NCBI GenBank assembly: GCA_036478295.1 | Contig: JAZGDW010000201.1 | Coordinates: 1-34,557 of the forward strand | Reading direction: 5' to 3' | Origin: Candidatus Krumholzibacteriia bacterium | Lineage (GTDB): Bacteria > Krumholzibacteriota > Krumholzibacteriia > WVZY01 | Length of the DNA stretch: 34,557 nucleotides | Shown: positions 5,198 to 33,400 of the stretch, piece after piece | Layout of the letters: every line of letters begins with the position of its first letter | Position numbering within the stretch: position 1 is the first letter of the stretch | Notes under the pieces: model-generated | The model's input: only the letters and a program-made list of their open reading frames with translations | The model's database searches: none | Told to the model about the DNA's origin: nothing | Translations under genes and position numbers: made by a program

Positions 5198-5199
5198 CC

Positions 5200-6825
5200 T
5201 CAATCCCTTGAAGGCAACGGCGCCTGGACAACCTGCTCCTGCAGGCGAACCCCGAACGGTCCGACGGCGTTCAGGTCGACCGCCGAAAACGCTGCTTCCT
5301 GTTCGCCGAGCGCGGCGCGCAAATCGGTCAGGTCGTCGAAGCCGTTTTCGCCGGTGACCGACGCTACGAGACCCATGATAATCTGCCACGGCGGCGTCCG
5401 GTCCCAGAGGTTATCCAGCGCGGGCGCGAGCTTCTGAATATGCCCCTGGAAATTGACGACCAGCCCGTCCTTTTCCGCAAAGGTCAAGCCGGGCACCAAC
5501 ACGCTTGCCCCCGCCGTGAGACTGCTCTCGCACGACGCCACGAGTGCGACCTTATTGAAATTTCCAAAAAATTCTTCCAGCTTCCCACCGATACCGTAGT
5601 CGAAACCGACGGCGAGGAGCACCGTCTCTCCGGAAACCTGCCCGATGGCCTCGGCGCCCTTTTCCCCACTGCCCTCGCGGAAGTCCACCAGCGGGATGTC
5701 GAGCAGTTCCGCTCCCTTGCGGTTGGGATGGCGGTCGCTGCGCCGCAAGAGATTATCCTGTTCGCCGTCGGGCACATGGCGGGCGGCATAGAGCGACGCC
5801 TCGGGCAGCACCGCGGTGAGTCTCTTGATGGCGTACATTTCCTCGAGCGTGCAGGTGGCCGAGGCGAGCATCACGACCGGCACCCGTTCCTGTCCCTGCG
5901 GGCCGCCGCCGATACCCAACAGGGCCCGCAGCTCGTTCACGGCGTTTTCGAGCGAACACTCGTAGCGTTCTCCTCCGCGCTCGACGACAGCGCACCGGAT
6001 GCGCCCCGTGTTCACAAATTTGTAGTTCAACCGCCCCGCATCACACATCCAGTAGCCGTTGACGTCGGGATTGTGCCGCGGCCGCAGCCGGTGAACGGTC
6101 TGGTCCTTCGCATCCACTGCGATCGCGCAACCCCGCGAACAGCTGGTGCACACCGAAGGTGTCCGCTTCAGAAACCAGGTCGGGATGGAAAAACGGAAGT
6201 CCTTGCTGGTCAACGCGCCCACGGGGCACAGGTCGACCGTATTGAGCGAGTAGGGACTGGTGACCTCTTTGCCGGGAAACGGCGTGAGAAACGCATCGTG
6301 GCCCCGGCCGGCGATGTACAGCTCCTCGCTTCCCGCCCAGTCGCGGAGAAAGCGAACGCACCGGTCGCACAAAACGCAGCGCTCCTGGTCGAGCACCATC
6401 GTGGGTCCGATATCGATGGCCTTTTTCTTTTTGAAACGCGGGAAGTCCTGGCGCGAGGTCTTCATGTCGTGCGCCATGTAATAGTCCTGCAGCGTGCACT
6501 CGCCCGACTTGTCGCAAATGGGACAATCGAGGGGGTGGTTCAAGAGCAGGAATTCCTCGACACCGGCGCGCGCGGCTTTGACCACCTGGCTGTCCGTGAC
6601 GACGTTGAGGCCTTCTGTGACCTGCGCGTTGCACGAGATGGCGAGGCGCGAACCGCGCTCCGACACGTACTCCACCTGGCACATGCGGCAGTTGCCATCC
6701 GGTCCGAGTCCCGGGTGGTAGCAGAAATACGGGATATCCATCCCGATCTCGTTCAAGACGTCGATCAGCCAGCGGCCCGCTTCGGCCTGGTACTCTTTCC
6801 CGTTTACAGTGATGGTAACGCTCAT
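5200..6825 (-). CDS. nuoG: NADH-quinone oxidoreductase subunit G (short, 541 aa)
   Basis: CYHPGL..DGNCRMC (N1b), HPLDCPICDKSGEC (N5), CVLCDRC...DLCPVGAL (N4), CTSCSRGC...CDAGR (N7) motifs. Confidence 0.93.
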   Translation of the reverse strand: MSVTITVNGKEYQAEAGRWLIDVLNEIGMDIPYFCYHPGLGPDGNCRMCQVEYVSERGSRLAISCNAQVTEGLNVVTDSQVVKAARAGVEEFLLLNHPLDCPICDKSGECTLQDYYMAHDMKTSRQDFPRFKKKKAIDIGPTMVLDQERCVLCDRCVRFLRDWAGSEELYIAGRGHDAFLTPFPGKEVTSPYSLNTVDLCPVGALTSKDFRFSIPTWFLKRTPSVCTSCSRGCAIAVDAKDQTVHRLRPRHNPDVNGYWMCDAGRLNYKFVNTGRIRCAVVERGGERYECSLENAVNELRALLGIGGGPQGQERVPVVMLASATCTLEEMYAIKRLTAVLPEASLYAARHVPDGEQDNLLRRSDRHPNRKGAELLDIPLVDFREGSGEKGAEAIGQVSGETVLLAVGFDYGIGGKLEEFFGNFNKVALVASCESSLTAGASVLVPGLTFAEKDGLVVNFQGHIQKLAPALDNLWDRTPPWQIIMGLVASVTGENGFDDLTDLRAALGEQEAAFSAVDLNAVGPFGVRLQEQVVQAPLPSRD

Positions 6826-6877
6826 CTTGCTTCCGTGTAATTCCCGCGTTCCGGGCGCTTGCGCCCGTTCCCCTTGA

Positions 6878-8167
6878 CTATGCGACTGCCGGCGCCCTCG
6901 CCGAATCGTAAGGGCAGCGTTTCTGTTTGACGTGTTCGTCGAATTCGTGCCTGAATTTTTCTATGTAGCTTCTCGCCGGTATGGCAATGGAGTCCGCCAA
7001 CACGCACACCGTCACCCCCATCATCATGGGACAGGTGTCGAGAATCTTCTCGATGTCGGATTGGTCGCCGTGCCCACTCTCCAGGCGCTCGGCGAGCTCT
7101 GATATGAAATACGTGCCCTCGCGGCACTGCGGGCACTGTCCACAGGACTCGTGGGCGTAGAAGCGCGCGATGACCCTCAGCGCCTTTACCACACAGTCGT
7201 CTTCGCCGAGGACCATAATGGCGCCGGAGCCGACCATCGATCCCGCGGCCGCTAGCGACTCGTAGTCGAGGTTCGTGCTCCCCGCCTCTTCCGCCGTCAG
7301 AATGGCCGCCGAGGACCCGCCGGGGATAACCGCTTTGAGCTTGCGCCCGCCACGGACCCCGCCGGTGCTCCGCTCGATGAAATCCCACAGGTTGACACCG
7401 AATTCTCCCTCGTAAACGCCGGGCCGCTCGACCGAGCCGCTGATGGAAAAGAGCATGGTCCCGGTACTCTTTTCGGTACCGAGTCTCGCGTAGGCCTCCC
7501 ACCCCTCATTCATAATGAAGGGGAGGGCGGAAAGCGTCTCTACGTTGTTCACGACCGTGGGGCATCCGAAGACCCCGATTACCGCGGGGTATGGAGGCTT
7601 GGCCCGTGGCTCGCCCTTTTTGCCCTCCAGCGATTCGATGAGTCCGGTTTCTTCTCCGCAGATATAGGCGCCGGCCCCTCTGTGTACGATCACGTCGAGA
7701 TCGAAACCCGATCCCAGGATATTCCTGCCGAGGTAGCCTTTCGCGTACGCTTCATCGATCGCCGCCTGGGTACGGATACGGGGCTTGGTGTACTCGCCGC
7801 GAATATAGATGTAGGTGGTGTGGATGCCAACGGCGTACGAGCAGGTGATGATTCCTTCTATCATGCTGTGCGGATCGAGCTGCAGGATCTTGCGGTCCTT
7901 GAACGTGCCCGGCTCACCCTCGTCCGCGTTGACACATAGATATTTCGGCTTGTCGATACTCTTGGGAACGAAGCCCCATTTCATCCCGGCCGAGAAACCC
8001 GCGCCACCGCGGCCCCGGAGACCCGACTTCTTGACGTGGTCGATGATCTCCTCGGGTTTCATCTTGAACACTTTTTCGAGCGAGCGATAGCCGCCAAGTT
8101 TCTCGTATACTTCGAGCTTGTGCGCGTCCGCTTTGTCGAAGTTCGTGCTGATAATCTGCTTGCTCAT
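6878..8167 (-). CDS. nuoF: NADH-quinone oxidoreductase subunit F
   Basis: 429 aa from ATG 8167 (MSKQII); SGLRGRGGAGF, NADEGEPGTFKDR, GAGAYICGEET, HESCGQCPQCREG motifs. Confidence 0.96.
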   Translation of the reverse strand: MSKQIISTNFDKADAHKLEVYEKLGGYRSLEKVFKMKPEEIIDHVKKSGLRGRGGAGFSAGMKWGFVPKSIDKPKYLCVNADEGEPGTFKDRKILQLDPHSMIEGIITCSYAVGIHTTYIYIRGEYTKPRIRTQAAIDEAYAKGYLGRNILGSGFDLDVIVHRGAGAYICGEETGLIESLEGKKGEPRAKPPYPAVIGVFGCPTVVNNVETLSALPFIMNEGWEAYARLGTEKSTGTMLFSISGSVERPGVYEGEFGVNLWDFIERSTGGVRGGRKLKAVIPGGSSAAILTAEEAGSTNLDYESLAAAGSMVGSGAIMVLGEDDCVVKALRVIARFYAHESCGQCPQCREGTYFISELAERLESGHGDQSDIEKILDTCPMMMGVTVCVLADSIAIPARSYIEKFRHEFDEHVKQKRCPYDSARAPAVA

Positions 8168-17895: not shown

Positions 17896-18867
17896 ATGCT
17901 CAAGAAAATGATCCTGTGGCCTGTCGCGTGCGCCATCCTCGTCTATTTACCGGTCAGATTCCACTCTCCAACGCAAGTTCAAGCGAATACACCACTTGCA
18001 GTGTTGATTTCGTGTCTGGGTGATGTCACCGTGGTCAAGAGTGACGGCCCGACCGTGCAAGGGATTTTCGGTTTACCCCTGAACGCCGGGGACGAGGTGC
18101 GGACGGGTGACGCGGCCCAGGCCGACATCCTCTTTGCAAACGACAATCTGATCCAGGTAGGGGCCAACAGCAGCACGCGGATCATGGGGCGGAAGGGAAG
18201 CCGTTCGGCCGAGTCCAGCACATCGATGGGCGAAAAGAGTTTCCAGACGGTGCAGAATTTTCTCAAACTCACAGACTCCGGTGGGACCAGCTCGCTGGCC
18301 CAACTACGCTCCGCGGACAGCGACCAGGAGATCCGGCTGGAATCGCCGTGCCAGACCCGGGTCCGGAGTGACCGCCCGACCTTCCGGTGGCAGGCGGCCG
18401 ATCCGGCGGAGGAGCTGCAGATCTCCGTGTACAGCGACGCGGCAGTTCAGTGGGAGTACGATGTAACCAGCGAGATGAAAATAAGTTACCCGGAAAGCGC
18501 CCCGGCGCTGAAACCGGGCACGACCTACTGGTGGACACTGAAATCCACCGATCCACTACGGTTTCCTCCGGTCACGACAAATGCAGTGCCGTTCGAGATC
18601 CTGGGTGAAGCGGATGCCCGGAAACTCGACGTGGCCCTTAGCGAGATCGCAAAGGACGAGAGCCGTCCGTCTTCATATCACTTTTTCCGCGCGAGCCTCT
18701 ACTTCGACTACGGGCTGATGGAAGCAGCCATCATGGAAACCATCCAGGCGCTGGAAGGCGACGCGGACAATCCGACCCTGCACTCCATCCTTGCCCACCT
18801 CTACGCCGAGACCGGTCGTTCGCAGGAGGCACTCGGCGAGTACAACCGACTGCTCGAAAAACGCTGA
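17896..18867 (+). CDS. Exported/anchored protein with FecR-like N-terminal domain, DUF928-like middle domain and C-terminal TPR
   Basis: N-terminal hydrophobic segment; GDVTV...LNAGDEVRTG....A.ILF.ND..I.VGANS (FecR-like); SP.....RPTFRW...YP..APALKPG.TYWW (DUF928-like); helical TPR tail. Confidence 0.65.
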   Translation: MLKKMILWPVACAILVYLPVRFHSPTQVQANTPLAVLISCLGDVTVVKSDGPTVQGIFGLPLNAGDEVRTGDAAQADILFANDNLIQVGANSSTRIMGRKGSRSAESSTSMGEKSFQTVQNFLKLTDSGGTSSLAQLRSADSDQEIRLESPCQTRVRSDRPTFRWQAADPAEELQISVYSDAAVQWEYDVTSEMKISYPESAPALKPGTTYWWTLKSTDPLRFPPVTTNAVPFEILGEADARKLDVALSEIAKDESRPSSYHFFRASLYFDYGLMEAAIMETIQALEGDADNPTLHSILAHLYAETGRSQEALGEYNRLLEKR

Positions 18868-18905
18868 TCTTGCGGTAATCTCTTGCATCGTAGTACTATG
18901 AGGTT

Positions 18906-20519
18906 ATGGCCAAGGCGGAGATCGGCGGCTACAGGATTGATGGAACCCTCGGTGAAGGCGGCATGGGTCACGTTTACCGCGCCCGCGACGTCACCCTCGA
19001 ACGCGATATCGCACTGAAAGTCATCCGCGCGGATAGCCTCACTGCGGTTGGTAAGGAACGTTTCCTCAGGGAAGCCCGCGCCTGCTCCCGTATTAGTCAC
19101 CCCAATATCATTACTGTCTACGCTGCAGGCGAAGATGATGGTCATCCGTATATGGCGATGGAACTTATCGCCGGCCGCACCCTGCGTGAGCTTATCGATG
19201 AGGGCCCCGTCCCCTGGCGGCAGGCCATCCGCTGGATCGCCGACATCGCCGACGCGCTTTGCCGCCTGCACCAGGAGGGGATCATCCACCGCGACCTGAA
19301 ACCGGAAAACATCATGGTCAAGGAAGACGGTTTGGTCAAACTAATGGATTTCGGAATCGCCCATATGGCGACGAGCGCGACCTTGACCCGGGAGGGTGTG
19401 AGCCTGGGGACGGTGTTTTACATGTCACCGGAGCAGGCCTCCGGCAAGAAGGCTGACGCGAGGAGCGACATCTTCTCCCTCGCCGCCGTCCTCTACGAGA
19501 TGTTGACCGGCCAGTTCGCCTTCAAGGGCGAGCATCCCATGGCGGTAATGTATTCCATTACCAACGCTTCACCGCCCGCGATTGACGGGTTTGGTATCGA
19601 GTTTCCGGAAAATCTCAAGGAAATCGTCGAGCGGGCGCTGGAAAAAGATCCGGAGGACCGTTTCGACGACGCTGGCCAGCTGCGCGACGGGCTCGAGAAG
19701 CTCCTCGGGGGCACGAGGGGGGGGCCGCAATCCGGCGTTCTGATGCGCCTGGTGCTGCCGGCGGTGGTCGCTATTACGGTCGGTGTCATCGTCTGGGCCG
19801 TATTTATGCGGGGCGGACCGGACCGGGAGGCGGCGACGCGCCACAACGAGAAGGGTCTGGCCTTCGAGGAAGCCGGAGACGTCGTAAAGGCCCGTGATCA
19901 GTACTTGGAGGCGATCGATGAGGATCCCGACTACGTGTTGCCGTACAACAACCTGGGGATGCTCTACTTGAGGCAAGGTGATTCCACCCAGGCGGTCGTG
20001 CAGTTCGACAAGGCGCTGATGCTCGGCAGCGACATAAAGCTCGACGTGTCGGTTCTCTACAACCTGGCGGATCTGCGTTTGGGAATGCAGGATTCCACCC
20101 GCGCCTACCTGTATTTTATGCGTGCCGTTGACGAGAACCCCTCGTTTCTGTACGCACACAACAATCTGGGAGCACTCCTCATCGGCCGCAATCAAATCGA
20201 AGAGGCCAAAGCGATTCTCGATGACGCGCTGGGCAAGACGACGAGCCCACACTATACCGAGGTCGCTCCTTACCTGTTGAAGAACCGCGGCAAGGTCGCG
20301 GCGCGTCTCGGACGCCAGGATGAGGCCTTCGACTACTGGACGCGCGCGGTGGCCGTGATGCAGGACAACGTCGAACTCCACCTCCTGCTCGCCGCCTGGC
20401 ACCAGCGAGACGGCACCCTGGAAAAAGCACGGGAACACTGGGCCCGCGTCGTCGAGTTGACGAACGGGGAGCAGCAGCGGCAGGCGCAGGCGGCACTCGA
20501 GCGGCTCGGATCCAAATAA
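18906..20519 (+). CDS. Membrane Hanks-type Ser/Thr protein kinase with C-terminal TPR repeats
   Basis: GEGGMG.VY, IALK, HRDLKPEN, DFG, GT..YMSPEQ, D.RSDIFSL; one TM (LVLPAVVAITVGVIVWAVF); several YNNLG/HNNLG TPRs. Confidence 0.93.
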   Translation: MAKAEIGGYRIDGTLGEGGMGHVYRARDVTLERDIALKVIRADSLTAVGKERFLREARACSRISHPNIITVYAAGEDDGHPYMAMELIAGRTLRELIDEGPVPWRQAIRWIADIADALCRLHQEGIIHRDLKPENIMVKEDGLVKLMDFGIAHMATSATLTREGVSLGTVFYMSPEQASGKKADARSDIFSLAAVLYEMLTGQFAFKGEHPMAVMYSITNASPPAIDGFGIEFPENLKEIVERALEKDPEDRFDDAGQLRDGLEKLLGGTRGGPQSGVLMRLVLPAVVAITVGVIVWAVFMRGGPDREAATRHNEKGLAFEEAGDVVKARDQYLEAIDEDPDYVLPYNNLGMLYLRQGDSTQAVVQFDKALMLGSDIKLDVSVLYNLADLRLGMQDSTRAYLYFMRAVDENPSFLYAHNNLGALLIGRNQIEEAKAILDDALGKTTSPHYTEVAPYLLKNRGKVAARLGRQDEAFDYWTRAVAVMQDNVELHLLLAAWHQRDGTLEKAREHWARVVELTNGEQQRQAQAALERLGSK

Positions 20520-20656: not shown

Positions 20657-23600
20657 TTACTTCAGCAGCAACATCTTGCGCGTCTTCGAGAACTTGCCGG
20701 CCACGATCTTGTAGAAGTAGACACCGCTGGCAACTGAGTGCCCGCTCGAGTTCCGGCCATCCCATTCCACGTCGTAGTGATTCGCGATTCGCTTCTCGTT
20801 GACCAGCGTTTGCACGCGCCGGCCGGCGACGTCGTAGACCACGAGCTTCACATGGCTGTCCTGCGCCAGCGTGAAGCGGATGGTCGTCGTCGGGTTGAAC
20901 GGGTTGGGAAAGTTCTGCTCCAGAGTAAACGGCGCGCGGTACGTGAACTTGAACGGCCCAAAAACATCCCCTGCGCCGTCGCTGCTCACTTCCTCGAGCT
21001 TGTAGTAGTACGTCTGGTTGGGCCGAACGGTCGTGTCGCGGAACTCGTAGCTCGAACCGTTCGGTCTGCCCGAACCGGGAATGGCATCTGCAGTGAGTCT
21101 CTCGTAACCGACGTGTGGCTTGTCCGACCGCAGCACGTGAAAGCCGGAGAAACCGACCTCGAGAAGGGTCTGCCATTTCAACACCGCGGCCCGGTCCTGC
21201 TGAACGGCCGTGAAGCTGCCCAGCGTCACCGGAACGTTGCCATGTACCGTGAACGCCTCACTCATACCCGCCCCGATGGATACAGTCGATTCGCCCTCCT
21301 CTGTATAGAGGATCAGCATGACCCGCCCCGAAGGGGAGTCGAAACCGCGCGGTATCCACCAGTTCAGAACTTCGGTGTTGGGAGCGCCGAGTACGATCGC
21401 TATCCAGGTTTGTCCATCGTCCGGACTCCACCAGAAATCCACGGCCGTGATCGGCGTGAAGGCCGGTGATTGCCACCGGATGTCGAACGTAGCGCCACCG
21501 AAGACCTCGTCCTCCGATGTCGGAGCGAGCAACGTGGGCCGGAAGGTCCGGATGGAATCGGTGCCGCTGAATTCCTGGCCGCTGGCAAGACCGGTGACGG
21601 TTACCGGGACTTGCGCGCCCTGACCGACGATGTTCTGGAACTCGATGCGGTCGAATTCCACATGGATCTCGTCAAGACCGTCGTCATCTACATCGGTGAG
21701 CGTGGATGATACCGCTGTGACTGACACCAATCCGTTCATGGCCAGACTACCGGAGACGATATTTAACGGGTTGAATCCCGCCGGCAGTTCGATCGCCGCG
21801 CGAATATCCCGGAACGGCGGGTTGAGCATACTGGTGGGGTCTGTCGGCCTGGACTGCACCACGACGTCGGCAAGCAGCCCCAGGATGGTCATGGTGGCGT
21901 CACCTGCGTTCGTGACGAGAGCGATACCGGTGCCGGACGGATCGAACGCAACCGCCGCTGGATCCGCACCGGTCGAAATGGTGCCGACCACGGTCAGGGT
22001 TTGCGGCGTCACAACGGCATTGGGATCGAGCACCGATACCGAGCCCACGATGTCGAGCGACACAATGATGATGATGTCGCCCTCATTCTGCACCAGCCAC
22101 AGGAACGCTCCGTCGGGCGTGATCTTGAGACTCCGGGTCGACGTACCACCGCCGACCTCCGCAAGGACTTCGTTCTCCGACGGGCTTCCCGGCGCGATGT
22201 CGTATATCAAGACATCGCCTTCCGTGGTCAGCACGACCAGCAGCGACCCATCCGGCGTAATCTTGAGGCTCCTCGTCGAGGATCCACCGCCGACACTACC
22301 CAACACTCCGAAGTCCAGCGCGCTTAGAATCACGTAGCCGTCGTCGGTGCCCACGTAGAGGAGCCCGCCGTCGGGGGTAATGGCCAGGCTTCGCGTGCCG
22401 TCGCCCCGGCCGACAGTGGACAACACGGTATGAAACGTCGCACTGAGATTATCCGTGTCGATCACGCTCAGGTCGTCGGACCCGGCATTGGCCACGACAA
22501 CACGATCCCCGTCGGGGGTGATCACGAGATCGACGGGATTTGTACCGACAATCACCGTTTCCGTCACGCTGTTGAATCCAGGAGACCCAGAATCAACGTC
22601 AATGATGGAAAGGGTTCCCGAGAGAAAGTTCACCACGTAGGCGAACGTCCCATCCGGATTGATGATGATGGCGAACGGGGTGTCGCCGACCTGTATGCTG
22701 GGCAGCGTCGTCAAGGTCACCAGATCGATGGGAACGACGGTACCGTTATCGGGACTGACGCCGTAAGCGAACGCCCCGTCCGGCGTGATGGCCAGGCTGC
22801 GCGTGGAGGACCCCGTACCGACCGCGCCGAGTACGTCGTCCGCGGGCGACAAGCTGGGCACCAGTACCGTGAAAGGCAGCGCGTTGGACGTGTCCGTCAC
22901 GATGACGACACGGATTTCTCCCGTAGCGGCGCCGAGGGGGACCGTCACGTTCAGAAAGTTGTCACCGGCCTCCGTGACCGTACCCACAACCGCGTCGAAA
23001 AGCACGGTGTTGTTGGCCGGCACCGGGTCAAAACTGGTCCCGGACAGCACGATGCCAACCGTCGCCGCCGCACTGGGCGGGCTGATGGCGGAGAGCGCCA
23101 GCGGCGGTGGTGGCACGGTCGTGAAACTCGCCGTGTCCGCCTCCGAGAGCGCGTCACCGAGCGCGGCGATGATGCCGGTGGTGGCCACTATCTCGTAGGT
23201 CTTACCCGGCTCGAGAATGTGTACCGGTGTCAGCGAGATCTTGCGATTCAGGTCTGTAAAACCGACGATGGTTGGCACCTGCGCGAGTGACACGCTTTCC
23301 CGCAAGAAATAGTTCGTGCTGTTCACCGAAGTCGGATTCACTCCCCGGCTGAACGTGGTCTGGATGGCCGTGCTCGTGTTCACGCCCATTTGCCCGTCGC
23401 TCGGGACGAAGCTGCTGACGGTAAGCGGTAGCGAATCGGGATCGTTCAGCGTATTGGCGACGAAGTCGACCGGCGAACCCGTCAGGCCCAGCGATGAAGC
23501 CCGGACTCCCTGGGTCGCGGCGCCGACTGTCGACCCCAGCCTATAGTCGACCTCGGCGAACCCATCCGCGTCGGTCACGACCACCTGCGTGGTCGGATTG

Positions 23601-26600
23601 ACCGCGGGATCCCCGGTCTCAAAAGAGCCGTCATCAGCGGTCACATCGAAGGTGACCGCGACCCCGGCGGATGGATCGCCGGACACGGTGTTGATGACCC
23701 GAACCTTCAGCGGGTCGGGCAGTGTCTGGTTAATAACGCCGGTTTGATTATCCCCCGAGACTTTGACCAGTTCTTGCGCCGTGGTGAAGTCGTAGACAAA
23801 GACACTGTCCTGCGACGTGCTCGTTGCGTACAGGAGCGCACCGCCGGAGGAATAACTGAAATCGACCCCTCCCGAGTGGAGTGCCCCGCCGGACTGGTCC
23901 AGCACGGGGATCGTCGGAGAGGTGGTGACGTTGAGATGCGAAAACCCATCGCTCAGGATATTCAGGACCGCCCGGTCACCGCGCGGTGACACGTGGATGT
24001 GCTCGTCGGCCGCAACGGCCGTCGTCGAGAACAGCTCCGAGCCAAGCAAGGTCGGGCTCACCACGTTCGCCGGCGCGCTGGTGTTCAGCGTCAATACGGT
24101 CCGGTTCGGGCCCGCGGCAACGCTTTTCTGGCTGGTCAGCACGAAGCACCGTGACCCGTCGGGCGTAAACGATATCGAAATGGGCATCTCATCCGGAGTC
24201 GACCCCGGAGGCACCAGCGGCATTTTGTGCACTACCATGCCGAAGTCCGGGCTCCCGAGACCGACGTCCATTACCAGGATTGCCGCGGGCACGGAATCCT
24301 GAACGGCGAGATACGCGAACTGTCCGGCGGGATGGAAAGTCATCTCGCCCACGAGTCCGTTGATACCCAGCGGGACATCGGCGGTCGGCGTGGTGGCGAT
24401 GACCTGGTTCGCCTGTGCCGAGCCCTCGCGTATGTCCACGATGTGCACACTGGCGAGTCCCGGATCCGAAATCAGCATGAAAAAGCCGTCGGGGCTGATA
24501 CTCAGCCTCTCGAGGGCCAGGCCGCCGGTGACGTCGACCGAATCGATCACAGTACCCAGGTCGGTACTGTTGCGATCGATGTTGACCACCGGCACGAACT
24601 GCTCGGTCTTCGACAATACGTACGCGCGCCGTCCGTCCGGTGTGATGGCGACGTCGGCCAGTGAACTGCTCAGTGGAACGGCGCTGGCGATGAACTGGGT
24701 GAACGTGGCACTCGAAGAATTCGCGTCGAGCACAAAGAGCTCACCGGCGTCGCCGCCGACCGCAACCACTTCTCCATCCGGAGGGATGGCCAGAGCCCGT
24801 GACAGCTGGGGGCCTCCCACTGGCTGAGATTTCGCCGCCAGGCGTAGCCCGCCGGCCGGCGTCGGCAGATCCAGAACATCGAAGAAAATCGCGTTGGATA
24901 TCTCAACGGGTGGTTCGAGATTCGTGACGCGGACGGTAACCGGTCCATCGGTCGCGCCGGGTGGCACGGCAACCGCGAGCACCGAATCGCCCACTTGTTC
25001 GGGGGTCGTAATGATCCCGTTGAACGATACGGTCGTCGAGCTCTCGGCGGTGAAATCCACACCCGCGAGTACCAGCCGGGTTCCGACCGGTCCCGCGTGC
25101 CGCGACATTGACCTCAACACGGGTCCCACACCGATACCGGTCACCACCATGGCCTGCTCGGCCTCGGAGAGCGACAGCGCAAAAATACCATCCGGCGTCA
25201 GCGCGACATCTACCGGGTTGGCTCTTTGGTCGATGTCGGCCGCCAGACCGCGAAATGTCGGGGACCCTTCCCTGAGATCGATCACATCGAGGAGATCTCG
25301 CTCGCGGTTCGTCACATAGAAGAAATTACCAGTCGGCGCAATCGCCCCGCCCCGAAGCGTACCGCCGATCGGAATATCCGTTACGTGGGACAGCGAGTTC
25401 AGGTTCACGATGCTCGTGAAACCGAACTCGTCGGGTATATACGCCCGGTCGCCGAGCGGGTCCACGATAACGTCATTCGGATCGGGACCGACGTTGATTT
25501 CGGCCACGAGCGAGTCGAGGTCGAGGTCGAACACCAGCACCTTGCCGATGCCGCTGAGGCCCAGCAGGAGATTACCCGCCGGGTTCACGGCCATCTTGCC
25601 ACGAAGGTTGGGTTCGGCGATGATCTCGCCGATCTGGCGCTCGAAGGTCGGGCTGCCGCTCGTGATATCCCAGATCTGTACTTCGCTCGCGTCGGTTGGA
25701 ATGTATGCGCGGTTGGGCAAGACAAACAATCCCCGGGGTACCGCCCCGACGTCCTTCTCACTCAGTCTCCCCACAGATCCCAGAGCGGGATCAACGTTGA
25801 GCCGGTAGAGCTTCTCGTTGAGCCGGCTCACCGCGTAGACTACGCCGGTGGGGGTAATGCTGATCTCGTTCAAACCACCGGTGATATCGATGGGCGTATG
25901 AAGCAGGTAGTCCGGCCGCCCGGGATCTACGACCACAACGGAGGCACCGGCATTGGTCGCGATAACCGCGCGGCTACCGTCGGGCAGGACAGCGATCGAG
26001 CGCGGCAGCGCCCCGAGGGCCACCACCGCCGCCTCGAATCCCCGCGCCACGTCGTCGACCGGCAAGACAGTGTACGCAAGCTCGTTGCTGGGCGGGGGTC
26101 GCAGTAAGTTCGTCACGCCTACCAGTGCCACGCCGACGGGAGCGCCGGCGGGTACTTCAAAAACCAGCTGGCTTGGCGATGCGGAGATGATGTTCGCCGT
26201 CAAACCGCCGAACGTCACCAGATTGTTGCCCGGGTCGCTTTCGAAACCGAAGCCGTGGATGGTGACCTCGGTGGCAACGGGCCCGTGGGTGGGCACGAGA
26301 CTGGTGATGCCGACCGCAGGCTGAACCTCCGTCGTGAAGTGCAATACAAACGGGGCTTGCAGTCCGTTCCCGAACTGATCGGTCAGTCCGGTACCCAGCT
26401 CGAGTTTGTAGACGGTATCGAAGGAAAGGTTGCCGCCGGGAAGGAATGCCAGCGTCGAATCGTCTTCGAGCACCGCCGCGCTTCCCGAAATGAACAGGCC
26501 TGCCGCCGTATCAGTCAGCGCGAAATTCCCCTGAATGCTGCCGCTCGCGATCGCTTCGGAGAACGCTATCAGTACCGCCGCGTCGATTGCGACGTCCAAC

Positions 26601-29600
26601 CCGTTGTCGGTCGGAGACGACTCGGTAACCGTGGGTCCCGTCTCGTCGACGTTGGTGATGATCTGGATGTCCGTCGTCGTCCCGCTGGTCACCGTCACCG
26701 GATCCGCGACGGTGGGATCGTCGAACTTGGACTCCGCGAGGTCCCAGAACTCCGGAACCAGGACGGTGACCGCCTCGTCGAAAATCAGCTGGTTGATGTT
26801 CTGTGGTGCAATGAACCCGATCGGCGAGGTCCCATTCAGCGGGTGGATGCCCACGTTGTAAGTGCCGTCGGGTATTCCCAAAAACTCGAACGTGCCGAAT
26901 GGAGGCAGCGTGTAATCGTTGGCAATCGTGTCTCCGGTCGCCGTATCCATGACGTAGACGATGACGCCCGGCACGGGGCTCAGATCCGTGCCGTCCAGCA
27001 CCGTACCGGTCAAACGGCTCATCGTCGCAAGGGCGCTCGCACTGGGGTATGACTTGAGCACCATCTGCTCGTCCTCGGGCGTCGGCGATGCCGCATCCTC
27101 GCCCGGCGGCAGTACGAAGAACATCGTGGAGGTCTTGACCGCTGCGTGCGAAACGCCGAAGAGGTGCAGTGCCTCGTGGGCGGTCACGCTCTCGGTATCC
27201 GTACCGGATCCCGCCATGGCTGTTTTGAAGCTCTTGGTGGGATTGAAGATTATATCGGCGTCGACGATCTGGCCGGGACGGGCGAGCGTGCCGTTGAACA
27301 TCGTCGGGACCAGGAACGACGTTGAGATTCCTACCGCCAATACGCCTGCCGGAAAAGCAAAGTCCGGGTCCTCGAACGTGATCAGATTGATCCCGTCCAG
27401 CGCCTGGGCATCGGCCTGTGTCGTCGTTGCTTGAAAACTGACCGCATATTCCGCACCGGGAATCGAAGACCACACGTCCATCCCTGCCTGCAGTGCGGCA
27501 AAGTCGCTGCCGTCCGTTATTCCGGATATGCCATTCTCGTGGATGAAGTAAGGAAGCGGCAGATCTTCGGGCGGCCAGTACTCGAGGTGGCGCGCGCTCA
27601 AGATGTCGTCGAGACAGCCGTCACCGTCGCGGTCGAAGAAGGACGCGTCCTCCAGCGGGCACAGGTCGACGATATCGGGCACACCATCCCCATCCGAGTC
27701 GGCGCCCGTGTCGGTGGTCAGTATGATGGCCGAGAACGCGGTGTTGTCGCTTTCATCCTCATCTTCCACTTCATCGAATTCATCGATTATAACGCCGAGG
27801 AAGACCGGTCCGGTCCCTGCACCTGCAGGGATCGTGACATTGGATGGAAAGGTTACGACCCGTACTTCACCGGCTACCATAATGGGTTCATTCTGCCGGC
27901 CGTTGACGAGCAGCTGATCGGCGAGCGTGATCGTGGTATCTGTAGAGATGTACAGACCCACGGAAAAGCCAACCTGCGTCGCCTTCTTACCGGCATTTTG
28001 AATGGTCAGACTGATATCGTCGCCGATAGCGCCTCCCACCAGCGCCGTAGCCGGACCGCTGAACTCAACCACACCCAGGATGAGATTGTCATTGTCGTCG
28101 AGGAGCACGAATGCGTCCTCGAGTCCCTCGCTGACCTGGCCGTCGAGTGTGCCGGCAGTAAAACCTGCCACATTAACCCCTAACGGTGAGGTTGAAATCG
28201 CCAGTGAGCGGTCATCACTTGCGGTTCCGAACTGGCGGGTCCAGATCTCGTTGCCGTCCAAATCGTATTTTTGGAGAAACGCATCTTCACCACCCAGGTT
28301 CATCTCTCCCGGCAGCGTCCCAGTGGTGTAACCGCTGGTATTGACGCCCGATGGATCCAGAGAAATCGCGCAGGCCTCGTCCTTCAAGTTCGTACCGAAC
28401 TGACGCGTCCACAATTCGTTGCCGTTCACATCGTACTTCACGACGTAGGCATCGAGGTCGCCCAGATTCGACTCTCCAGGCAAGGCACCATACGTACTCC
28501 CCGTGACAAACAGGCCCGAGGGGTCACAGGCGATGGCGAACGCATCATCGACCGACGAGGAACCGAACTGCCGGGTCCAGATTTCATTGCCGTCGGAGTC
28601 GTACTTGCGCACGTAGGAGTCCCTCAGTCCCAACCCGGACTGGCCCGGCAAGACACCGTCGGTGCTGCCCGTGACATAGATGCCCGAGGCATCGGCGGAG
28701 ATTGCAAACGCCTTGTCGGTTCCCGCAGTCCCGAACTGGCGGGTCCAGATCACGGTGCCGGCGAGATCATATTTGCGCACGAAAGCGTCATATCCACCGG
28801 CACTCGTCTCTCCTGGCAACGTACCAAGCGTAAACCCGGTAACATAAACGCTGGATCCGTCCGACGATATCCCTGTCGCCTCGTCGTCAGCGCTGCTTCC
28901 AAACTGGTCCGTCCACAAGACAGTGCCACCCGCATCGTACTTGCAAATGAAGACGTCGATGCCGCCAGCACTGGAATGCGTCGGAAACACATCGTCCGTA
29001 CTACCTGCGACAAAGACCGCCGAGGCATTCGCGACGACCGAACTGGTGATGTCATCCCCTGGGGTTCCGAACTGGCGGGTCCAGATCTCGGTGCCGTTCG
29101 CGTCGTACTTACGAACGTAGGCATCGACGCCGCCGGCACTCGACTGCCCGACGAGCGTTCCTTTCGTCCGTCCGGTTATGTAAAGCTCCGTCGTACCGAC
29201 GGCGGAGATTCCGGCCCCGTGATCGAGCAGGGCGCTCCCGAACTGGCGAACCCACATCGGCACCGATGCATCGATAATGACCGGCGAGGCCCCGGTGTTG
29301 TCCACCTCGCTCCCTTCGGCGATGAGGTCAAATTCATCGACAATCACGCCGAGATAGCCGCTTCCGAGTGGCGCGGCTCGAGGGATAGAAACGTTGTCGA
29401 CCGGCACCGTCATCGTCGCGCCGGCTGCCAGCGCGACCACAATCTTTCGGCCCGTCACTAGAATGAGATCTTCCGTCGTAATCACCGCATCGGGTGAAAG
29501 GTAAAAGCCGACGTAGAACTCACTGTTGATATCTTCGGTTCCACTGTTACGGATGGTGACACTCAGCTGCGAGCTGATATCATCGTCCCGTGCCGCGTCG

Positions 29601-29749
29601 GACGGGGTGGAAAACGAAACGATTTCCAGATTCATCGGAACGGCGGCCAGGACACCATCTCGGCCCATCGGCAAAAACATGTTTGAGACCACACCCGCAA
29701 CCAGGAGGATCGCGGGAAGCACGAGTGTTCTTAGCATTCGAGATTTCAT
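20657..29749 (-). CDS. Giant (3030 aa) secreted multidomain protein: CARDB, SBBP propeller, CARDB, TSP3-like Ca motifs, matrixin-like Zn metallopeptidase, Ig/IPT domains, YVTN-type propellers, FlgD-Ig/T9SS-like C-terminal domain
   Basis: AAGGAG SD and signal peptide; 7x W.RQFG repeats; DSDGDGVPDIVDLCP; HEALHLFGVSH...STM; Big_5-like SSP.D....V; IPT repeats; ITPDG repeats; LEQNFPNPFNPTT...ASGVYFYK...TRKMLLLK. Confidence 0.88.
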   Translation of the reverse strand: MKSRMLRTLVLPAILLVAGVVSNMFLPMGRDGVLAAVPMNLEIVSFSTPSDAARDDDISSQLSVTIRNSGTEDINSEFYVGFYLSPDAVITTEDLILVTGRKIVVALAAGATMTVPVDNVSIPRAAPLGSGYLGVIVDEFDLIAEGSEVDNTGASPVIIDASVPMWVRQFGSALLDHGAGISAVGTTELYITGRTKGTLVGQSSAGGVDAYVRKYDANGTEIWTRQFGTPGDDITSSVVANASAVFVAGSTDDVFPTHSSAGGIDVFICKYDAGGTVLWTDQFGSSADDEATGISSDGSSVYVTGFTLGTLPGETSAGGYDAFVRKYDLAGTVIWTRQFGTAGTDKAFAISADASGIYVTGSTDGVLPGQSGLGLRDSYVRKYDSDGNEIWTRQFGSSSVDDAFAIACDPSGLFVTGSTYGALPGESNLGDLDAYVVKYDVNGNELWTRQFGTNLKDEACAISLDPSGVNTSGYTTGTLPGEMNLGGEDAFLQKYDLDGNEIWTRQFGTASDDRSLAISTSPLGVNVAGFTAGTLDGQVSEGLEDAFVLLDDNDNLILGVVEFSGPATALVGGAIGDDISLTIQNAGKKATQVGFSVGLYISTDTTITLADQLLVNGRQNEPIMVAGEVRVVTFPSNVTIPAGAGTGPVFLGVIIDEFDEVEDEDESDNTAFSAIILTTDTGADSDGDGVPDIVDLCPLEDASFFDRDGDGCLDDILSARHLEYWPPEDLPLPYFIHENGISGITDGSDFAALQAGMDVWSSIPGAEYAVSFQATTTQADAQALDGINLITFEDPDFAFPAGVLAVGISTSFLVPTMFNGTLARPGQIVDADIIFNPTKSFKTAMAGSGTDTESVTAHEALHLFGVSHAAVKTSTMFFVLPPGEDAASPTPEDEQMVLKSYPSASALATMSRLTGTVLDGTDLSPVPGVIVYVMDTATGDTIANDYTLPPFGTFEFLGIPDGTYNVGIHPLNGTSPIGFIAPQNINQLIFDEAVTVLVPEFWDLAESKFDDPTVADPVTVTSGTTTDIQIITNVDETGPTVTESSPTDNGLDVAIDAAVLIAFSEAIASGSIQGNFALTDTAAGLFISGSAAVLEDDSTLAFLPGGNLSFDTVYKLELGTGLTDQFGNGLQAPFVLHFTTEVQPAVGITSLVPTHGPVATEVTIHGFGFESDPGNNLVTFGGLTANIISASPSQLVFEVPAGAPVGVALVGVTNLLRPPPSNELAYTVLPVDDVARGFEAAVVALGALPRSIAVLPDGSRAVIATNAGASVVVVDPGRPDYLLHTPIDITGGLNEISITPTGVVYAVSRLNEKLYRLNVDPALGSVGRLSEKDVGAVPRGLFVLPNRAYIPTDASEVQIWDITSGSPTFERQIGEIIAEPNLRGKMAVNPAGNLLLGLSGIGKVLVFDLDLDSLVAEINVGPDPNDVIVDPLGDRAYIPDEFGFTSIVNLNSLSHVTDIPIGGTLRGGAIAPTGNFFYVTNRERDLLDVIDLREGSPTFRGLAADIDQRANPVDVALTPDGIFALSLSEAEQAMVVTGIGVGPVLRSMSRHAGPVGTRLVLAGVDFTAESSTTVSFNGIITTPEQVGDSVLAVAVPPGATDGPVTVRVTNLEPPVEISNAIFFDVLDLPTPAGGLRLAAKSQPVGGPQLSRALAIPPDGEVVAVGGDAGELFVLDANSSSATFTQFIASAVPLSSSLADVAITPDGRRAYVLSKTEQFVPVVNIDRNSTDLGTVIDSVDVTGGLALERLSISPDGFFMLISDPGLASVHIVDIREGSAQANQVIATTPTADVPLGINGLVGEMTFHPAGQFAYLAVQDSVPAAILVMDVGLGSPDFGMVVHKMPLVPPGSTPDEMPISISFTPDGSRCFVLTSQKSVAAGPNRTVLTLNTSAPANVVSPTLLGSELFSTTAVAADEHIHVSPRGDRAVLNILSDGFSHLNVTTSPTIPVLDQSGGALHSGGVDFSYSSGGALLYATSTSQDSVFVYDFTTAQELVKVSGDNQTGVINQTLPDPLKVRVINTVSGDPSAGVAVTFDVTADDGSFETGDPAVNPTTQVVVTDADGFAEVDYRLGSTVGAATQGVRASSLGLTGSPVDFVANTLNDPDSLPLTVSSFVPSDGQMGVNTSTAIQTTFSRGVNPTSVNSTNYFLRESVSLAQVPTIVGFTDLNRKISLTPVHILEPGKTYEIVATTGIIAALGDALSEADTASFTTVPPPPLALSAISPPSAAATVGIVLSGTSFDPVPANNTVLFDAVVGTVTEAGDNFLNVTVPLGAATGEIRVVIVTDTSNALPFTVLVPSLSPADDVLGAVGTGSSTRSLAITPDGAFAYGVSPDNGTVVPIDLVTLTTLPSIQVGDTPFAIIINPDGTFAYVVNFLSGTLSIIDVDSGSPGFNSVTETVIVGTNPVDLVITPDGDRVVVANAGSDDLSVIDTDNLSATFHTVLSTVGRGDGTRSLAITPDGGLLYVGTDDGYVILSALDFGVLGSVGGGSSTRSLKITPDGSLLVVLTTEGDVLIYDIAPGSPSENEVLAEVGGGTSTRSLKITPDGAFLWLVQNEGDIIIIVSLDIVGSVSVLDPNAVVTPQTLTVVGTISTGADPAAVAFDPSGTGIALVTNAGDATMTILGLLADVVVQSRPTDPTSMLNPPFRDIRAAIELPAGFNPLNIVSGSLAMNGLVSVTAVSSTLTDVDDDGLDEIHVEFDRIEFQNIVGQGAQVPVTVTGLASGQEFSGTDSIRTFRPTLLAPTSEDEVFGGATFDIRWQSPAFTPITAVDFWWSPDDGQTWIAIVLGAPNTEVLNWWIPRGFDSPSGRVMLILYTEEGESTVSIGAGMSEAFTVHGNVPVTLGSFTAVQQDRAAVLKWQTLLEVGFSGFHVLRSDKPHVGYERLTADAIPGSGRPNGSSYEFRDTTVRPNQTYYYKLEEVSSDGAGDVFGPFKFTYRAPFTLEQNFPNPFNPTTTIRFTLAQDSHVKLVVYDVAGRRVQTLVNEKRIANHYDVEWDGRNSSGHSVASGVYFYKIVAGKFSKTRKMLLLK
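27122..27178 (-). other. Metzincin zinc-binding motif HExxHxxGxxH plus Met-turn inside the giant protein
   Basis: HEALHLFGVSH at 27178-27146; Met 8 residues after the third His (27124-27122), the matrixin/MMP spacing. Confidence 0.85.
28110..29260 (-). repeat. Seven 168-nt (56-aa) SBBP-type beta-propeller repeats
   Basis: CCGAACTG(G/C)CGGGTCCAGAT-like cores recur near 28228, 28396, 28564, 28732, 28900, 29068 and 29239; protein motif DA(F/Y)V.KYD..G...WTRQFG. Confidence 0.88.
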
Positions 29750-29764
29750 CGTGATTCTCCTTTC

Positions 29765-30322
29765 TTACTTGCGGCCCAGGGCCTGGTCAATGAATCGTTC
29801 AAGAGGCATCTTCTCCACACGTGACGCCCGCTTCAGCGCATCCGGCGTCGCCCCGCCCACAAGCTCCACTCCATCCTGCGACGGCCGCTCGATATACGGC
29901 TGATTCGTCCGCGGGTCGCGCACGATGTTGAATTTACCCTGGGAAAATCCCGATACCTGGAAGGCGCCGTTCGTATACGGCTCTAGAAAGACCAGGACTT
30001 CCTCGTCCGCGCGCCACTGCAGCGCGCCGGCAACGTTGACTTTGACGTTGTCCACCACGCCGCCCAGCTGCAGGATGAGGATCGCGGGAGGCTGATCCCC
30101 TTTGTAGGACTGATCGACCGTGATCTCGGTCTCGGTGAAGATCTTGGTGTGCTTGTCGTTCCAGAAGGAACGTACCCCGGTCACCTTTCCCCGCACAACG
30201 AGCGAGGATTGCTGACCGAGCTGCTCAATGCTTCGATGAATCACCTGTGTCGCCTGGGACAGCGTCGCGGTCCCAAACGTGATCACAAGTGAAACGGCTA
30301 GTACTCGAATAAAAGTTTTCAT
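29765..30322 (-). CDS. Small secreted protein, putative TIMP/NTR-like (OB-fold) propeptide or inhibitor domain
   Basis: GGAGG SD, MKTFIRVLAVSLV...SQA signal peptide; SIEQL...SSLVVRGKV...IFTE.EI.V..SYKG...GG.V.....VAG...EEVLVFL...G..QGKF; in-frame upstream ATG 30376 also has an SD. The CDS is solid, the function is inferred. Confidence 0.7.
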   Translation of the reverse strand: MKTFIRVLAVSLVITFGTATLSQATQVIHRSIEQLGQQSSLVVRGKVTGVRSFWNDKHTKIFTETEITVDQSYKGDQPPAILILQLGGVVDNVKVNVAGALQWRADEEVLVFLEPYTNGAFQVSGFSQGKFNIVRDPRTNQPYIERPSQDGVELVGGATPDALKRASRVEKMPLERFIDQALGRK

Positions 30323-30396
30323 GTTACTCCTCCGCACACATTTTGCACAGCGACGGGATTTAACAACAAAGTACATCTCTTTAGCCTCCTTGTTGA

Positions 30397-30422
30397 CCGT
30401 GCCGGCAGGCCTTCCGGCACGG
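30397..30422. other. Intergenic stem-loop without U-tract
   Basis: CCGTGCCGG-8 nt-CCGGCACGG, 9 nt after the upstream gene's stop and just before an AAGGAGG SD. Confidence 0.55.
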
Positions 30423-30431
30423 CCTGTCCAC

Positions 30432-33400
30432 CTACTTCAGTAGCACCATCTTACGGGTCATTCTAAATGCCCCCGCTTCGAGCCTATAAAAGTATACGCC
30501 ACTCGCAACCGAACCGCCGTTGCGACTGGTGCGATCCCACACGATTGTGTGGATGCCCGCCGGTTTTTTCTCATTCACCAGCGTCGCCACCAGGCGACCC
30601 ATGACGTCGTAGATCTTCAGACGTACGTGTGTTGTGACCGGCAGGTCGAAACGTATGGTCGTGGTCGGATTGAACGGGTTGGGATAGTTTTGCCCCAGGG
30701 CGAAACGCCGGGGAATCCTGTCCGACGCGTAGGCAATATTCGCGGTGCTCAGCGGAATCGTCCCCGCTGAAATGATAACGGCATTGTTTATCATCTCCGC
30801 TATGTTCTTCGCCTTCTCGTCGTTGCCGCTGTCTCTGTCATCGATCAGCTCATCGCAGTACGTTATGGCCTGCGAGACCGTGGCACTGTCTTCGCTGATG
30901 AACTCGGTCAGGCTGATATGCACGGCCGCCACGTTCAGGAGCAGGGTCACCAGCTGTTGCTTGGCCCGGTCGATCATGGTTGACGACCCTCTCAAATTGA
31001 GAAGATCCTTCGCCACGTTAAGCTTGTCGTCGCACTCGTCTGAGGTTGGCGGTTGATAAACGATCACCTGATTGATCGCGTTGCTGTTGAACCGGGCGGC
31101 TATCAGATCAAGATGATCGCAGAGAGTGGATGCATCAATTTCCGCTACGCCGATGCCACCAGTCGCGATTCCAATCTGGTGCTTCCAGAAGCCGATCCCC
31201 CTCGGCTGCGCGATAATAGGTACACAGGTGAGGGCGAAATCAACGACGGCCGTGTCACCGACTGAAATTGTGATCGGAACTTCCTGCGAAGCAATGCTGT
31301 ACCCCAGCGGCTTTACGATTGTGATCGTGTAGTCGCCCGGAGCCAGGCCACCAAAGTAATCACCATTCCCATTGGTCACGAAGCCGGCCCTCAGATCACC
31401 ACTGCCCGCTGCGAACGCGTCGATCGTCACACCGAGCAAACCGCTGTCAGGTACCGGACAGTCCGCAAACACCCTGCCGGCGAGGAACCCGAGACTACCC
31501 AGAATCGTAATGGTATTGTCTCCCGCGTTGGTCACCACTGCGCGCCCCGAGCCTGATGGATCGAAGGCCACGTGCGACGGGTCTTCGCCCACTGTGGTGA
31601 TGGTGTCGATGATCGTCGCTGTCAAAATAGTAACCGCCGCATCCGGTTCAAGAACGCCCACAGAAGTCCCGACATCCAGCGAAACCACGATAATGATGTC
31701 CCCTTCTACCTGGATCAGGTAGAGAAGCGAACCGTCTGGCGTAATCGAGATACTGCGCGTGCCGGATCCGGTGCCCACCGTGGAAAGAACCTCGTTCTCG
31801 GACGGGCTGCCAGGGGCGATATCGAAGATGAGAACGTCGCCCTCCGTTGTTAAGAGCACCGCCAGCGTCCCGTCGGGTGTAATCGAGATACTGCGCGTGC
31901 CGGATCCGGTGCCCACCGTGGAAAGTACGCCGAAGTCCAGAGCGTCCATGACGATGTAGCCCGTATCGGTTCCCACGTACAACCGTGTCCCGTCCGGCGT
32001 AATCGAGATACTGCGTGTGGTAGAACCGGTACCGACCGTGGACAATACCGAGTTGAAGGTCGAACTCGTGCTGTCAGCGTCGATCACGCTCAAATCGTTG
32101 GATCCCAGGTTGGCGACAAAAACCCGGTCGCCATCGGGACTCGCGACGATATCAACAGGATTGGTGCCCACGATGACGGTTTCGACCACCTGGTTGAACG
32201 TCGCCGGGTCAGCGATATCCACGCCGATAATCGTGACTGTTCCCGAAAACAGATTGACCACGTAGGCCAATGAGCCATCGGGAAGAATAACGATGGCAAA
32301 CGGGTGATCTCCCGTAGGAACAGCGGAAAAGGTCGTAAATCCTACCAGATCGATCGGAACCACCGTGTTCGCATCCGGGCTCACCGCGTATGCCAGGGCA
32401 CCGTCCGGCGTGATCGAGAGACTGCGCGTGGAGGAACCGGTGCCCACAGTGGACAGAACCTCATCCGATGCTGTGCTGGTTGGAATCAGGACCGTAAAAG
32501 GTAACGCGTTCGACGTGTCGGGCCCGACCACCACACGAACCTCGCCCGTGGTAGCGCTGAGAGGGATTGTCACAACGATGAAGTCGTTGCCGGCATCCGT
32601 CACCACACCCGGAACATCGTTGAACAACACTGTGTTGTTCCCTGGAGCCGGGTCGAATCCGGTGCCGGAAAGAACTACCGGATCATTGGTGACGGCGGCG
32701 GGCGGACTCGCCGCTACCAATTCGAGGGGTGGCGGCGGTGTCGTCGTAAAATCCGCGGTTGCACCCGCCACCAGCGCGCCGCTGCTCGTATCCTTGAGAC
32801 CGGTCGTGATCACGATCGTATAGATGGTTTCCGGCTGCAGGGGATCCACCGGGGTAAGCGACAGCTTCCGGTTCGAGTCCGTAGAACCCAGGATCGTCGG
32901 GACCAGCGTTGAAGAGAGCTTTTCCCTCAGAAAGTAGGTTGTGTTATCCACGGTGGTCGTATCCACCGAGCGGCTGAAGGTAACCTGAATTGCCGTAGTG
33001 ATGCTCACGTCTGTTTCATTCGAATCGGGCACGATGATCGAGATCGTGAGCGGAAGCAGGTCGGGGTCGTCGAGCGTACTCGCCACAAAGGTCGTGGGCG
33101 AGCCACCCAGGCCCAGGGATGTCGCCTCCACCGCCTGGGTTGACGAACCAATCACCGGGCCCATGGTCCAGTTGACTTCGGCAATTCCGTCGGAGTCGGT
33201 GGCGACGACGAGCGTGGTCGGATTGACCATGGGATCGCTGGTCGTGAAGAAACCTCCGCCTGCGGCGACCTCGAATGACACCGGCACTCCGGGTGACGCA
33301 GTTCCCGAATCCAGAACTTCTACCCTCAGCGGCGCGGACAGGGCCTGATTGATGATGCCCGTCTGGTTGTCACCCGACACCTGGGCCAGAGTCAGCGCGG

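Follow-up and report, generated by a model that had tools for sequence, protein, structure and literature searches.

A signal-peptide protein with a predicted TIMP-like fold encoded directly upstream of a matrixin-like protease that lacks a cysteine-switch prodomain in a Krumholzibacteriia bacterium

Introduction

What might hold a secreted matrixin latent when it carries no prodomain of its own? The question is raised by a locus of Candidatus Krumholzibacteriia (assembly GCA_036478295.1, contig JAZGDW010000201.1), which we analyzed as a 34,557-nucleotide stretch of DNA, hereafter the window. Here the gene for P0002, a 3030-aa matrixin-like protease, lies directly downstream of the gene for P0004, a 185-aa signal-peptide protein without a PNPFN tail that ends 15 nt before the protease start codon, just as a preliminary description made from the DNA letters had reported. 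That description likened the two genes to the animal pairs of matrix metalloproteinases (MMPs) and tissue inhibitors of metalloproteinases (TIMPs). TIMPs are described as an animal family in the account given by PMC4860685, and their N-terminal Cys-X-Cys is considered key to inhibition. We report here that P0004 belongs to an unnamed, unannotated and very large bacterial family, that it is predicted to adopt the N-TIMP/NTR OB-fold, and that it probably acts, by prediction, as a detached prodomain that inhibits its cognate prodomain-less matrixin in the manner of a TIMP.

P0002 is a matrixin-like protease without a PRCG switch

P0002 carries the zinc motif HEALHLFGVSH at residues 858-868 and a Met-turn (Met876) eight residues past His868, and the PRCG cysteine switch is absent from its sequence; the preliminary description was accurate on each of these points. 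The protein holds 6 Cys in its entire length. The protein is arranged as CARDB-propeller-CARDB, an acidic loop, the M10-like domain, a series of Big_5, TIG and propeller modules, and a tail of the type IX secretion system (T9SS). The CARDB domains, propeller and Ca-binding-type motif expected ahead of the catalytic domain were all recovered: CARDB in two stretches, with the best at 41-152, the propeller as one of SBBP type, and the motif as an acidic DxDGDG loop that presumably binds calcium. We considered the 680-aa N-terminal region as a prodomain and rejected it: it consists of CARDB and propeller, which are absent or different in most relatives.

The catalytic domain scored 22.7 bits against matrixin PF00413, just below the cut-off of 24, and a family profile of the catalytic domains partnered with P0004 relatives matches MMP-16 at 1.2e-15 and karilysin at 2.6e-14. 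All 68 of these domains matched NCBIfam NF041905 (MXAN_2677/MXAN_2678 metalloproteases) at E<=0.001, with the P0002 domain itself reaching only 29 bits against a cut-off of 250, and the catalytic Glu859 is invariant (68/68). In both P0002 and the family profile, the segment aligned with the His-based structural zinc site of animal MMPs contains no His. The P0002 tail scored 43.7 bits against TIGR04183 (cut-off 23). The source genome encodes PorV and SprA, each above its cut-off, and places PNPFN-like tails on 54 open reading frames (ORFs), and therefore possesses a T9SS-type route. A matrixin profile search of the whole genome gave a single strong match, P0002, so the adjacency of P0004 to this protease is not due to chance.

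P0004 represents a large family with a conserved predicted mature N-terminus

P0004 starts with a hydrophobic signal peptide that ends in SQA, with the mature protein beginning TQ, as judged by eye and from the conservation of A22 and A24; A24 is kept in 109/117 close homologs and 64/68 members of a broader set spanning Krumholzibacteria/Latescibacteria, Myxococcota and Acidobacteriota. An alternative ATG at 30376 would give 203 aa, and a Shine-Dalgarno-like motif stands at both ATGs; the homologs are mostly of about 185 aa, and the mature protein is identical from either start. P0004 contains no Cys, and hence no lipobox Cys. Mature position 1 (Thr25 of the precursor, hereafter Thr1) is Thr in 116 of the 117 close homologs and 65 of the 68 broader ones, and the spacing from Thr1 to the first-strand Gly (T1-G21) is invariant in both sets (117/117 and 68/68). 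The mature part is free of Cys in 114/117 and 59/68, the remainder carrying one. At E<=0.001 an HMMER search reached 21,660 clusters, and at 1e-10 it reached 12,351; among the 150 top-ranked distant representatives, 141 have T or S at position 1.

The family has no assignment in Pfam or NCBIfam, and P0004 itself gave zero matches to Pfam PF00965. A Pfam scan of 68 members returned weak matches only (DUF4131 in 12/68, TIMP PF00965 in 1/68 at E=0.094), and sequence searches of the PDB gave chance matches only. The named ESM Atlas clusters that came closest were TIMP, NtA and NTR at 0.80-0.87, which we treat as a lead only. The closest named relative (82%) comes from Ca. Krumholzibacteriia; the phage collection held no match and plasmids one weak match, and no RNA holder was listed. 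In the literature searched, outside which lie subscription papers and supplements, we found no paper on a Thr1, cysteine-free, fused-or-split family and 0 papers for 'bacterial TIMP' and MXAN_2676-2679. Brew and Nagase are said to have mentioned, in 2010, eubacterial N-TIMP-like proteins bearing CxC.

The predicted structure of P0004 resembles the TIMP N-domain

We modelled P0004 with AlphaFold2 from an alignment of the 117 homologs, signal peptide included, and obtained a mean predicted local distance difference test (pLDDT) of 86.9. When this model was aligned exhaustively against 48,161 chains, the best match was N-TIMP-3 (Z 11.1, root-mean-square deviation (rmsd) 2.7 A, 113 residues aligned, model 25-185 on chain 1-118), with Z 11.1-11.5 and rmsd 2.6-2.7 across the structural alignments. 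All 11 matches at Z>=8 were TIMP/NTR-type domains or proteins holding one, with generic OB folds at 7.2 or below, and the 8 Foldseek matches at E<=0.001 were all agrin NtA, TIMP-1 or TIMP-2. Residue 25 of the model pairs with residue 1 of TIMP-1, -2 and -3 (3ma2, 3cki, 6mav, 2j0t, 1d2b, 2e2d), a register read from the ends of the alignment ranges. Potempins, the small inhibitors discussed below, were not among the 50 structural matches listed, and such a match may lie outside that list. The TIMP/NTR likeness first suggested from sequence thus stands at the level of predicted fold and fails for the CxC motif, the disulfides and a Pfam match; because these three are lacking, we regard P0004 as TIMP-like and not as a member of the TIMP family.

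The predicted complex covers the zinc site

The complex was modelled in three runs from P0002 residues 713-909, zinc and the mature partner. It scored 0.85 (runs 0.84-0.88), compared with 0.01, 0.26 and 0.53 for the controls, the runs agreeing in at least 79% of contacts with a partner pLDDT of at least 83. Solved pairs reach the score mark in 116 of 157 cases and mismatched pairs in 2 of 215, counts that are a rough guide here, where our own alignments were used and a ligand added. In the model the partner lies across the zinc cleft: its residues 25-30, 55-61, 86-99 and 114-127 meet H858, E859, H862 and H868, strand 800-814 and segment 878-882, which follows the Met-turn. The tightest predicted contacts form an antiparallel zipper between partner 92-97 and the upper-rim strand 807-813 of the protease. 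A confident interface that includes the mature N-terminus, which the preliminary description had proposed to look for, was therefore obtained by prediction. The layout corresponds to that described for TIMP3 in PMC7308558, where the N-terminal residues and the sC-connector occupy the active site with Cys1 above the zinc, and both the register and the interface residues suggest that the N-terminus of P0004 may chelate the zinc.

The same domain occupies the prodomain position in natural fusions

PF00413 was present in 6 of 7 longer homologs, and a search with one fusion returned 334 matches, of which the 120 listed are described here. All 120 contain both domains, which agrees with the earlier suggestion of such a domain fused N-terminally to bacterial matrixin-like proteases; 119 keep the zinc motif and none carries PRCG. 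The TIMP-like domain stands in the prodomain position and is followed by a poorly conserved, variable linker, then F/Y (120/120) and RW, with a Trp nine residues past the F/Y in 118, a pattern we take to mark the mature start of MMPs. The T1-G21 spacing is held in 111/120, the other 9 being gapped. A mature fusion model reached a predicted template modelling score (pTM) of 0.86, with residues 1-10 at pLDDT 91, residues 2-4 forming a strand and the linker disordered, compared with pLDDT 67 for the same segment in the lone P0004 model, whose signal peptide was still attached. Fusion residues 1-2 superpose on the prosegments of proMMP-9 (98), ADAM17 (183), profragilysin (190), pro-astacin and pro-meprin, at residues presumed to lie at the zinc switches; this lends indirect support to a modelled N-terminus that sits in the cleft.

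Two fusions differ in layout: in P0342 the matrixin comes first, with a signal-like segment of its own, and the TIMP-like domain follows it, possibly by read-through, and in P0124 the protease domain is without a zinc motif.

Partner genes are coupled to metzincin genes across genomes

We examined the best 80 of 292 relatives, which lie in 79 loci. A plain motif test found HExxHxx[GA]xxH in the next gene for 68/79 hits, and the remaining loci were inspected with a profile built from those neighbours, a procedure circular for the 68 and informative for the others; L028 was reclassified by hand. An adjacent matrixin was present in 70 of 72 readable loci, 7 further loci being unreadable at contig ends, and the adjacency to M10-like domains anticipated at the outset is thus borne out. 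Among the 70, the matrixin is upstream in one, across an assembly gap in one and visible only at its start in one; the two readable loci without it are L008 (intact) and L053 (truncated). None of the 86 matrixin ORFs tested contains PRCG. In 50/67 pairs at most 110 codons separate the partner stop from the first conserved Trp, which leaves room ahead of the catalytic domain for no more than a signal peptide and, at most, a short acidic loop; in the other 17, as in the window, varied modules are inserted there. The acidic loop is conserved in Krumholzibacteria-type partners and absent in Myxococcota and Acidobacteriota, where the partner gene is retained.

A second sample comprised 41 genomes drawn evenly from one phylum, with one myxobacterial genome searched in addition. 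It held 21 partner copies in 14 genomes, 18 of them beside a metzincin: 17 directly upstream (two with HExxHxxNxxH) and 1 directly downstream. All 3 copies without a metzincin are broken: G000:C214 by an in-frame loss of about 66 residues, with its downstream gene visible for 777 codons and a later protease domain possible; G007:C5 by loss of the N-half, at the same place as L053; and G024:C12 by loss of the C-half. Conversely, the 18 strong matrixin matches (E<1e-9) fall in 17 genes, and every one of these is clustered with a partner: 15 directly follow it, 1 lies upstream of it and 1 is the second of a tandem pair; the count rests on strong matches, one of 20 weak ones (G011:C6) having been looked at. 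Partner and protease distances correlate (rho 0.46, 43 pairs, permutation p=0.001), a figure that we did not use because shared ancestry was uncontrolled.

Several loci depart from the simple pair. One partner gene is shared by two tandem matrixin genes in L084 (G012:C37), a single ORF at G029:C25 62084-64123 contains two matrixin domains, and in L083 and L085 the metzincin downstream of the partner has HExxHxxNxxH in place of the Gly motif. A degenerate partner duplicate directly precedes the intact copy at L001 7564-8004. The broken G000:C214 copy (~1995-2366) is a second copy of the partner, with 88% DNA identity across 173 nt; the gene downstream of it encodes a repeat protein in which no zinc motif occurs within the 777 codons visible. 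Directly upstream of the partner in L001 (4111-7563), L025, L045, L053 and G000:C214 (2-1924) is a protein of ~1050-1150 aa ending in HPF[YH]W, presumably of CHAT/TPR type, and ORFs of similar length hold this place in many other Krumholzibacteria-type loci.

A detached prodomain and its alternatives

Collectively, these observations suggest that P0004 probably serves as a detached prodomain. Cleavage by signal peptidase would free Thr1, and from that moment P0004 would occlude the zinc cleft of the matrixin encoded by the next gene, which has no prodomain, and so inhibit it. In the fused relatives the same domain would be a covalently attached prodomain that is set free when the linker is cut. 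The partner may stay in the periplasm while the tailed protease is exported, as the preliminary description proposed, or may be co-exported while bound to the folded protease.

A number of points weigh against this interpretation. Agrin NtA and complement C345C lie within about 1.5 Z of TIMP, so the fold alone is no proof of inhibition, and to our knowledge many of the animal NTR domains among the matches (agrin, complement) are not inhibitors. The best-resolved contacts of the complex are those of the 92-97 zipper and not of the N-terminus, and the model gave no Zn distance. The control in which the partner was kept and the protease swapped for an unrelated protein still reached 0.53, and because TIMP-MMP complexes have already been solved, the score may reflect memory or likeness. 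Predicted interface residues show no excess conservation compared with the core (0.56 vs 0.58), and some family copies begin with Ala. L092 (G041:C48) is a divergent partner lacking Thr1, and the matrixin-like gene downstream of it has other residues in place of the first and third zinc His; P0315 has two tandem TIMP-like domains without a free Thr1 behind a lipoprotein-type N-terminus, and the intact L008 copy has no matrixin within 8 kb. The acidic loop might itself confer an Asp-switch latency. The genomes are related and their counts are not independent, and we therefore report counts without a statistical test. Finally, changing Cys1 of TIMP3 to Ser abolishes inhibition, as reported in PMC7308558, so a disulfide-free partner would need another brace for its N-terminus, which the beta-zipper and the invariant glycines may provide.

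Some of these points would suit a partner that binds the catalytic domain chiefly to help it fold or be exported, as a chaperone or a stable co-subunit, with inhibition incidental. Prodomains often serve as chaperones, and the partner domain holds the prodomain position in the fusions; the L092 partner stands beside a protease with replaced zinc ligands, the P0315 domains have no free N-terminus, and the zipper supplies the best-predicted contacts. We nevertheless consider this unlikely, as a zinc-chelating N-terminus, and not a chaperone, would be expected to keep Thr1 and its distance to the barrel so strictly, and the predicted interface covers the zinc ligands. A role as a dedicated substrate or effector processed by the protease is highly improbable. 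Binding in the cleft is equally expected of a substrate, and the Listeria metzincin Mtz cleaves its co-encoded TIMP-like protein Tim in the account of PMC8235301; Tim, however, is described there as a lipoprotein encoded downstream of mtz that loses about 50 N-terminal residues, whereas in P0004 signal peptidase alone is predicted to expose the TIMP-like N-terminus, and many genomes carry the domain as a fused prodomain. Least credible is a role as an accessory module for binding or adhesion, NTR-like in kind, that never enters the cleft and leaves any latency to the acidic loop. The proximity of agrin NtA and C345C, the intact orphan L008 and the conserved loop would allow it; against it, the modelled complex outscores its controls and has the active site as its interface, Myxococcota and Acidobacteriota keep the partner gene though lacking the loop, and all three orphans in the genome sample have decayed.

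Features of the locus

Coordinates are collected in Table 1. The visible part of P0003, which runs up to the contig end, is 60% identical to P0002 residues 1597-2626 and has its own T9SS tail; were P0003 to hold a catalytic domain, P0004 could serve two enzymes. A scan of 29600-30600 for promoters and terminators found none. By eye, a GC-rich hairpin of 9 bp, with no U tract, can be seen at 30422-30397 (minus), between the upstream stop codon and P0004. Genes for a TPR protein of 323 aa that looks secreted and for a membrane-bound Ser/Thr kinase, both with motifs recognized by eye, occupy 17896-20519 (plus) and converge on the P0002 gene; in L012 the partner gene is flanked by a similar pair (5001-7663, minus), and a kinase gene lies upstream in L017.

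Table 1. Features of the P0004-P0002 locus in window coordinates
Feature	Position	Strand	Basis
P0002, 3030-aa secreted multidomain matrixin-like protease	20657..29749	minus	ORF, Pfam, NCBIfam
T9SS type A C-terminal sorting domain, P0002 residues ~2947-3030	20660..20911	minus	TIGR04183
M10-like catalytic domain, W725 to ~P907	27032..27577	minus	motif, profile
Met-turn, Met876 of P0002	27124-27122	minus	
Zinc motif HEALHLFGVSH, H858-E859...H862...H868	27178-27146	minus	
Acidic DxDGDG loop holding Cys697 and Cys712, immediately N-terminal to the catalytic domain, probably Ca-binding	27614..27688	minus	
15-nt spacer with Shine-Dalgarno-like AAGGAG for the protease gene	29750..29764	minus	sequence
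P0004, 185-aa partner, predicted TIMP/NTR fold	29765..30322	minus	ATG 30322, stop 29767-29765
Gly-rich hairpin of P0004, residues 86-99, approximate place of the TIMP sC-connector (presumed equivalence)	30026..30067	minus	complex model
Predicted mature N-terminus Thr25-Arg30, equivalent to TIMP residues 1-6, predicted cleft interface	30233..30250	minus	alignment, conservation, complex model
Predicted Sec/signal peptidase I (SPase I) signal peptide, P0004 residues 1-24, AxA-type end	30251..30322	minus	sequence; A24 conservation
P0003, upstream paralogous giant, ends at the contig end	30432..34556	minus	sequence comparison

Implications and comparison with known systems

A tentative evolutionary reading, which we hold as possible without favouring it, is that the P0004 family is a bacterial sister or ancestor of TIMP/NTR and that TIMP began as a bacterial matrixin prodomain (Thr1-chelating, disulfide-free, fused or split). 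If this were true, the TIMP-MMP partnership would predate animals, and animal MMPs would have gained the cysteine-switch prodomain separately. A bacterial family of this size with the predicted TIMP-like fold and N-terminal register would add a mechanism of metzincin latency that accounts for the lack of a propeptide in these bacterial matrixins, would make the origin of TIMP/NTR testable, and would offer a natural disulfide-free TIMP-like scaffold for basic work on MMP inhibitors.

Compared with the animal TIMP N-domain (MEROPS I35, PF00965) and its MMP targets (M10A), P0004 shares the predicted NTR/OB fold, a residue 1 in the Cys1 register, a Thr at position 2 in many relatives, and a predicted wedge of N-terminus and connector segment into an MMP-like cleft; by prediction, then, it works like a TIMP. 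Unlike TIMPs it has no CxC, disulfides or C-terminal TIMP domain, shows 11-19% identity, and is genetically coupled or fused to a single cognate protease without a cysteine-switch prodomain. P0002 likewise resembles matrixins in its HExxHxxGxxH motif, Met-turn spacing and profile likeness, and differs in lacking PRCG and the structural-zinc His. For the NF041905 proteins MXAN_2677/MXAN_2678 the protease family is known, and neither NCBIfam nor Pfam has a family for the upstream partner.

Three bacterial systems come close. Potempin A and karilysin of Tannerella forsythia, as presented in PMC9890683, also place a small OB-fold inhibitor gene directly upstream of a T9SS-secreted MMP-like peptidase. 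The potempins described there are, in contrast to P0004, lipoproteins with loop-based bilobal inhibition of KLIKK peptidases secreted as zymogens, and that account treats TIMPs as otherwise unrelated to them; P0004 is of SPase I type with a free N-terminus in TIMP register, and no zymogen segment was seen in P0002. Listeria Mtz-Tim likewise pairs a metzincin gene with a protein called TIMP-like, a likeness that rests on a Phyre2 assignment of ~60-90% confidence, and the authors state that they found no earlier record of bacterial TIMP-like proteins (PMC8235301); by its description Tim is set apart from P0004 as the product of a downstream gene, lipid-anchored and a cleaved substrate. The serralysin inhibitors AprI/Inh (I38) are co-transcribed periplasmic metzincin inhibitors; PMC8235301 says of them that they engage their enzymes in TIMP style and that their structure is not TIMP-like, and they also differ from P0004 in targeting M10B serralysins. 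Potempins and Listeria Mtz-Tim are partial precedents for the disulfide-free, fused-or-split Thr1 family.

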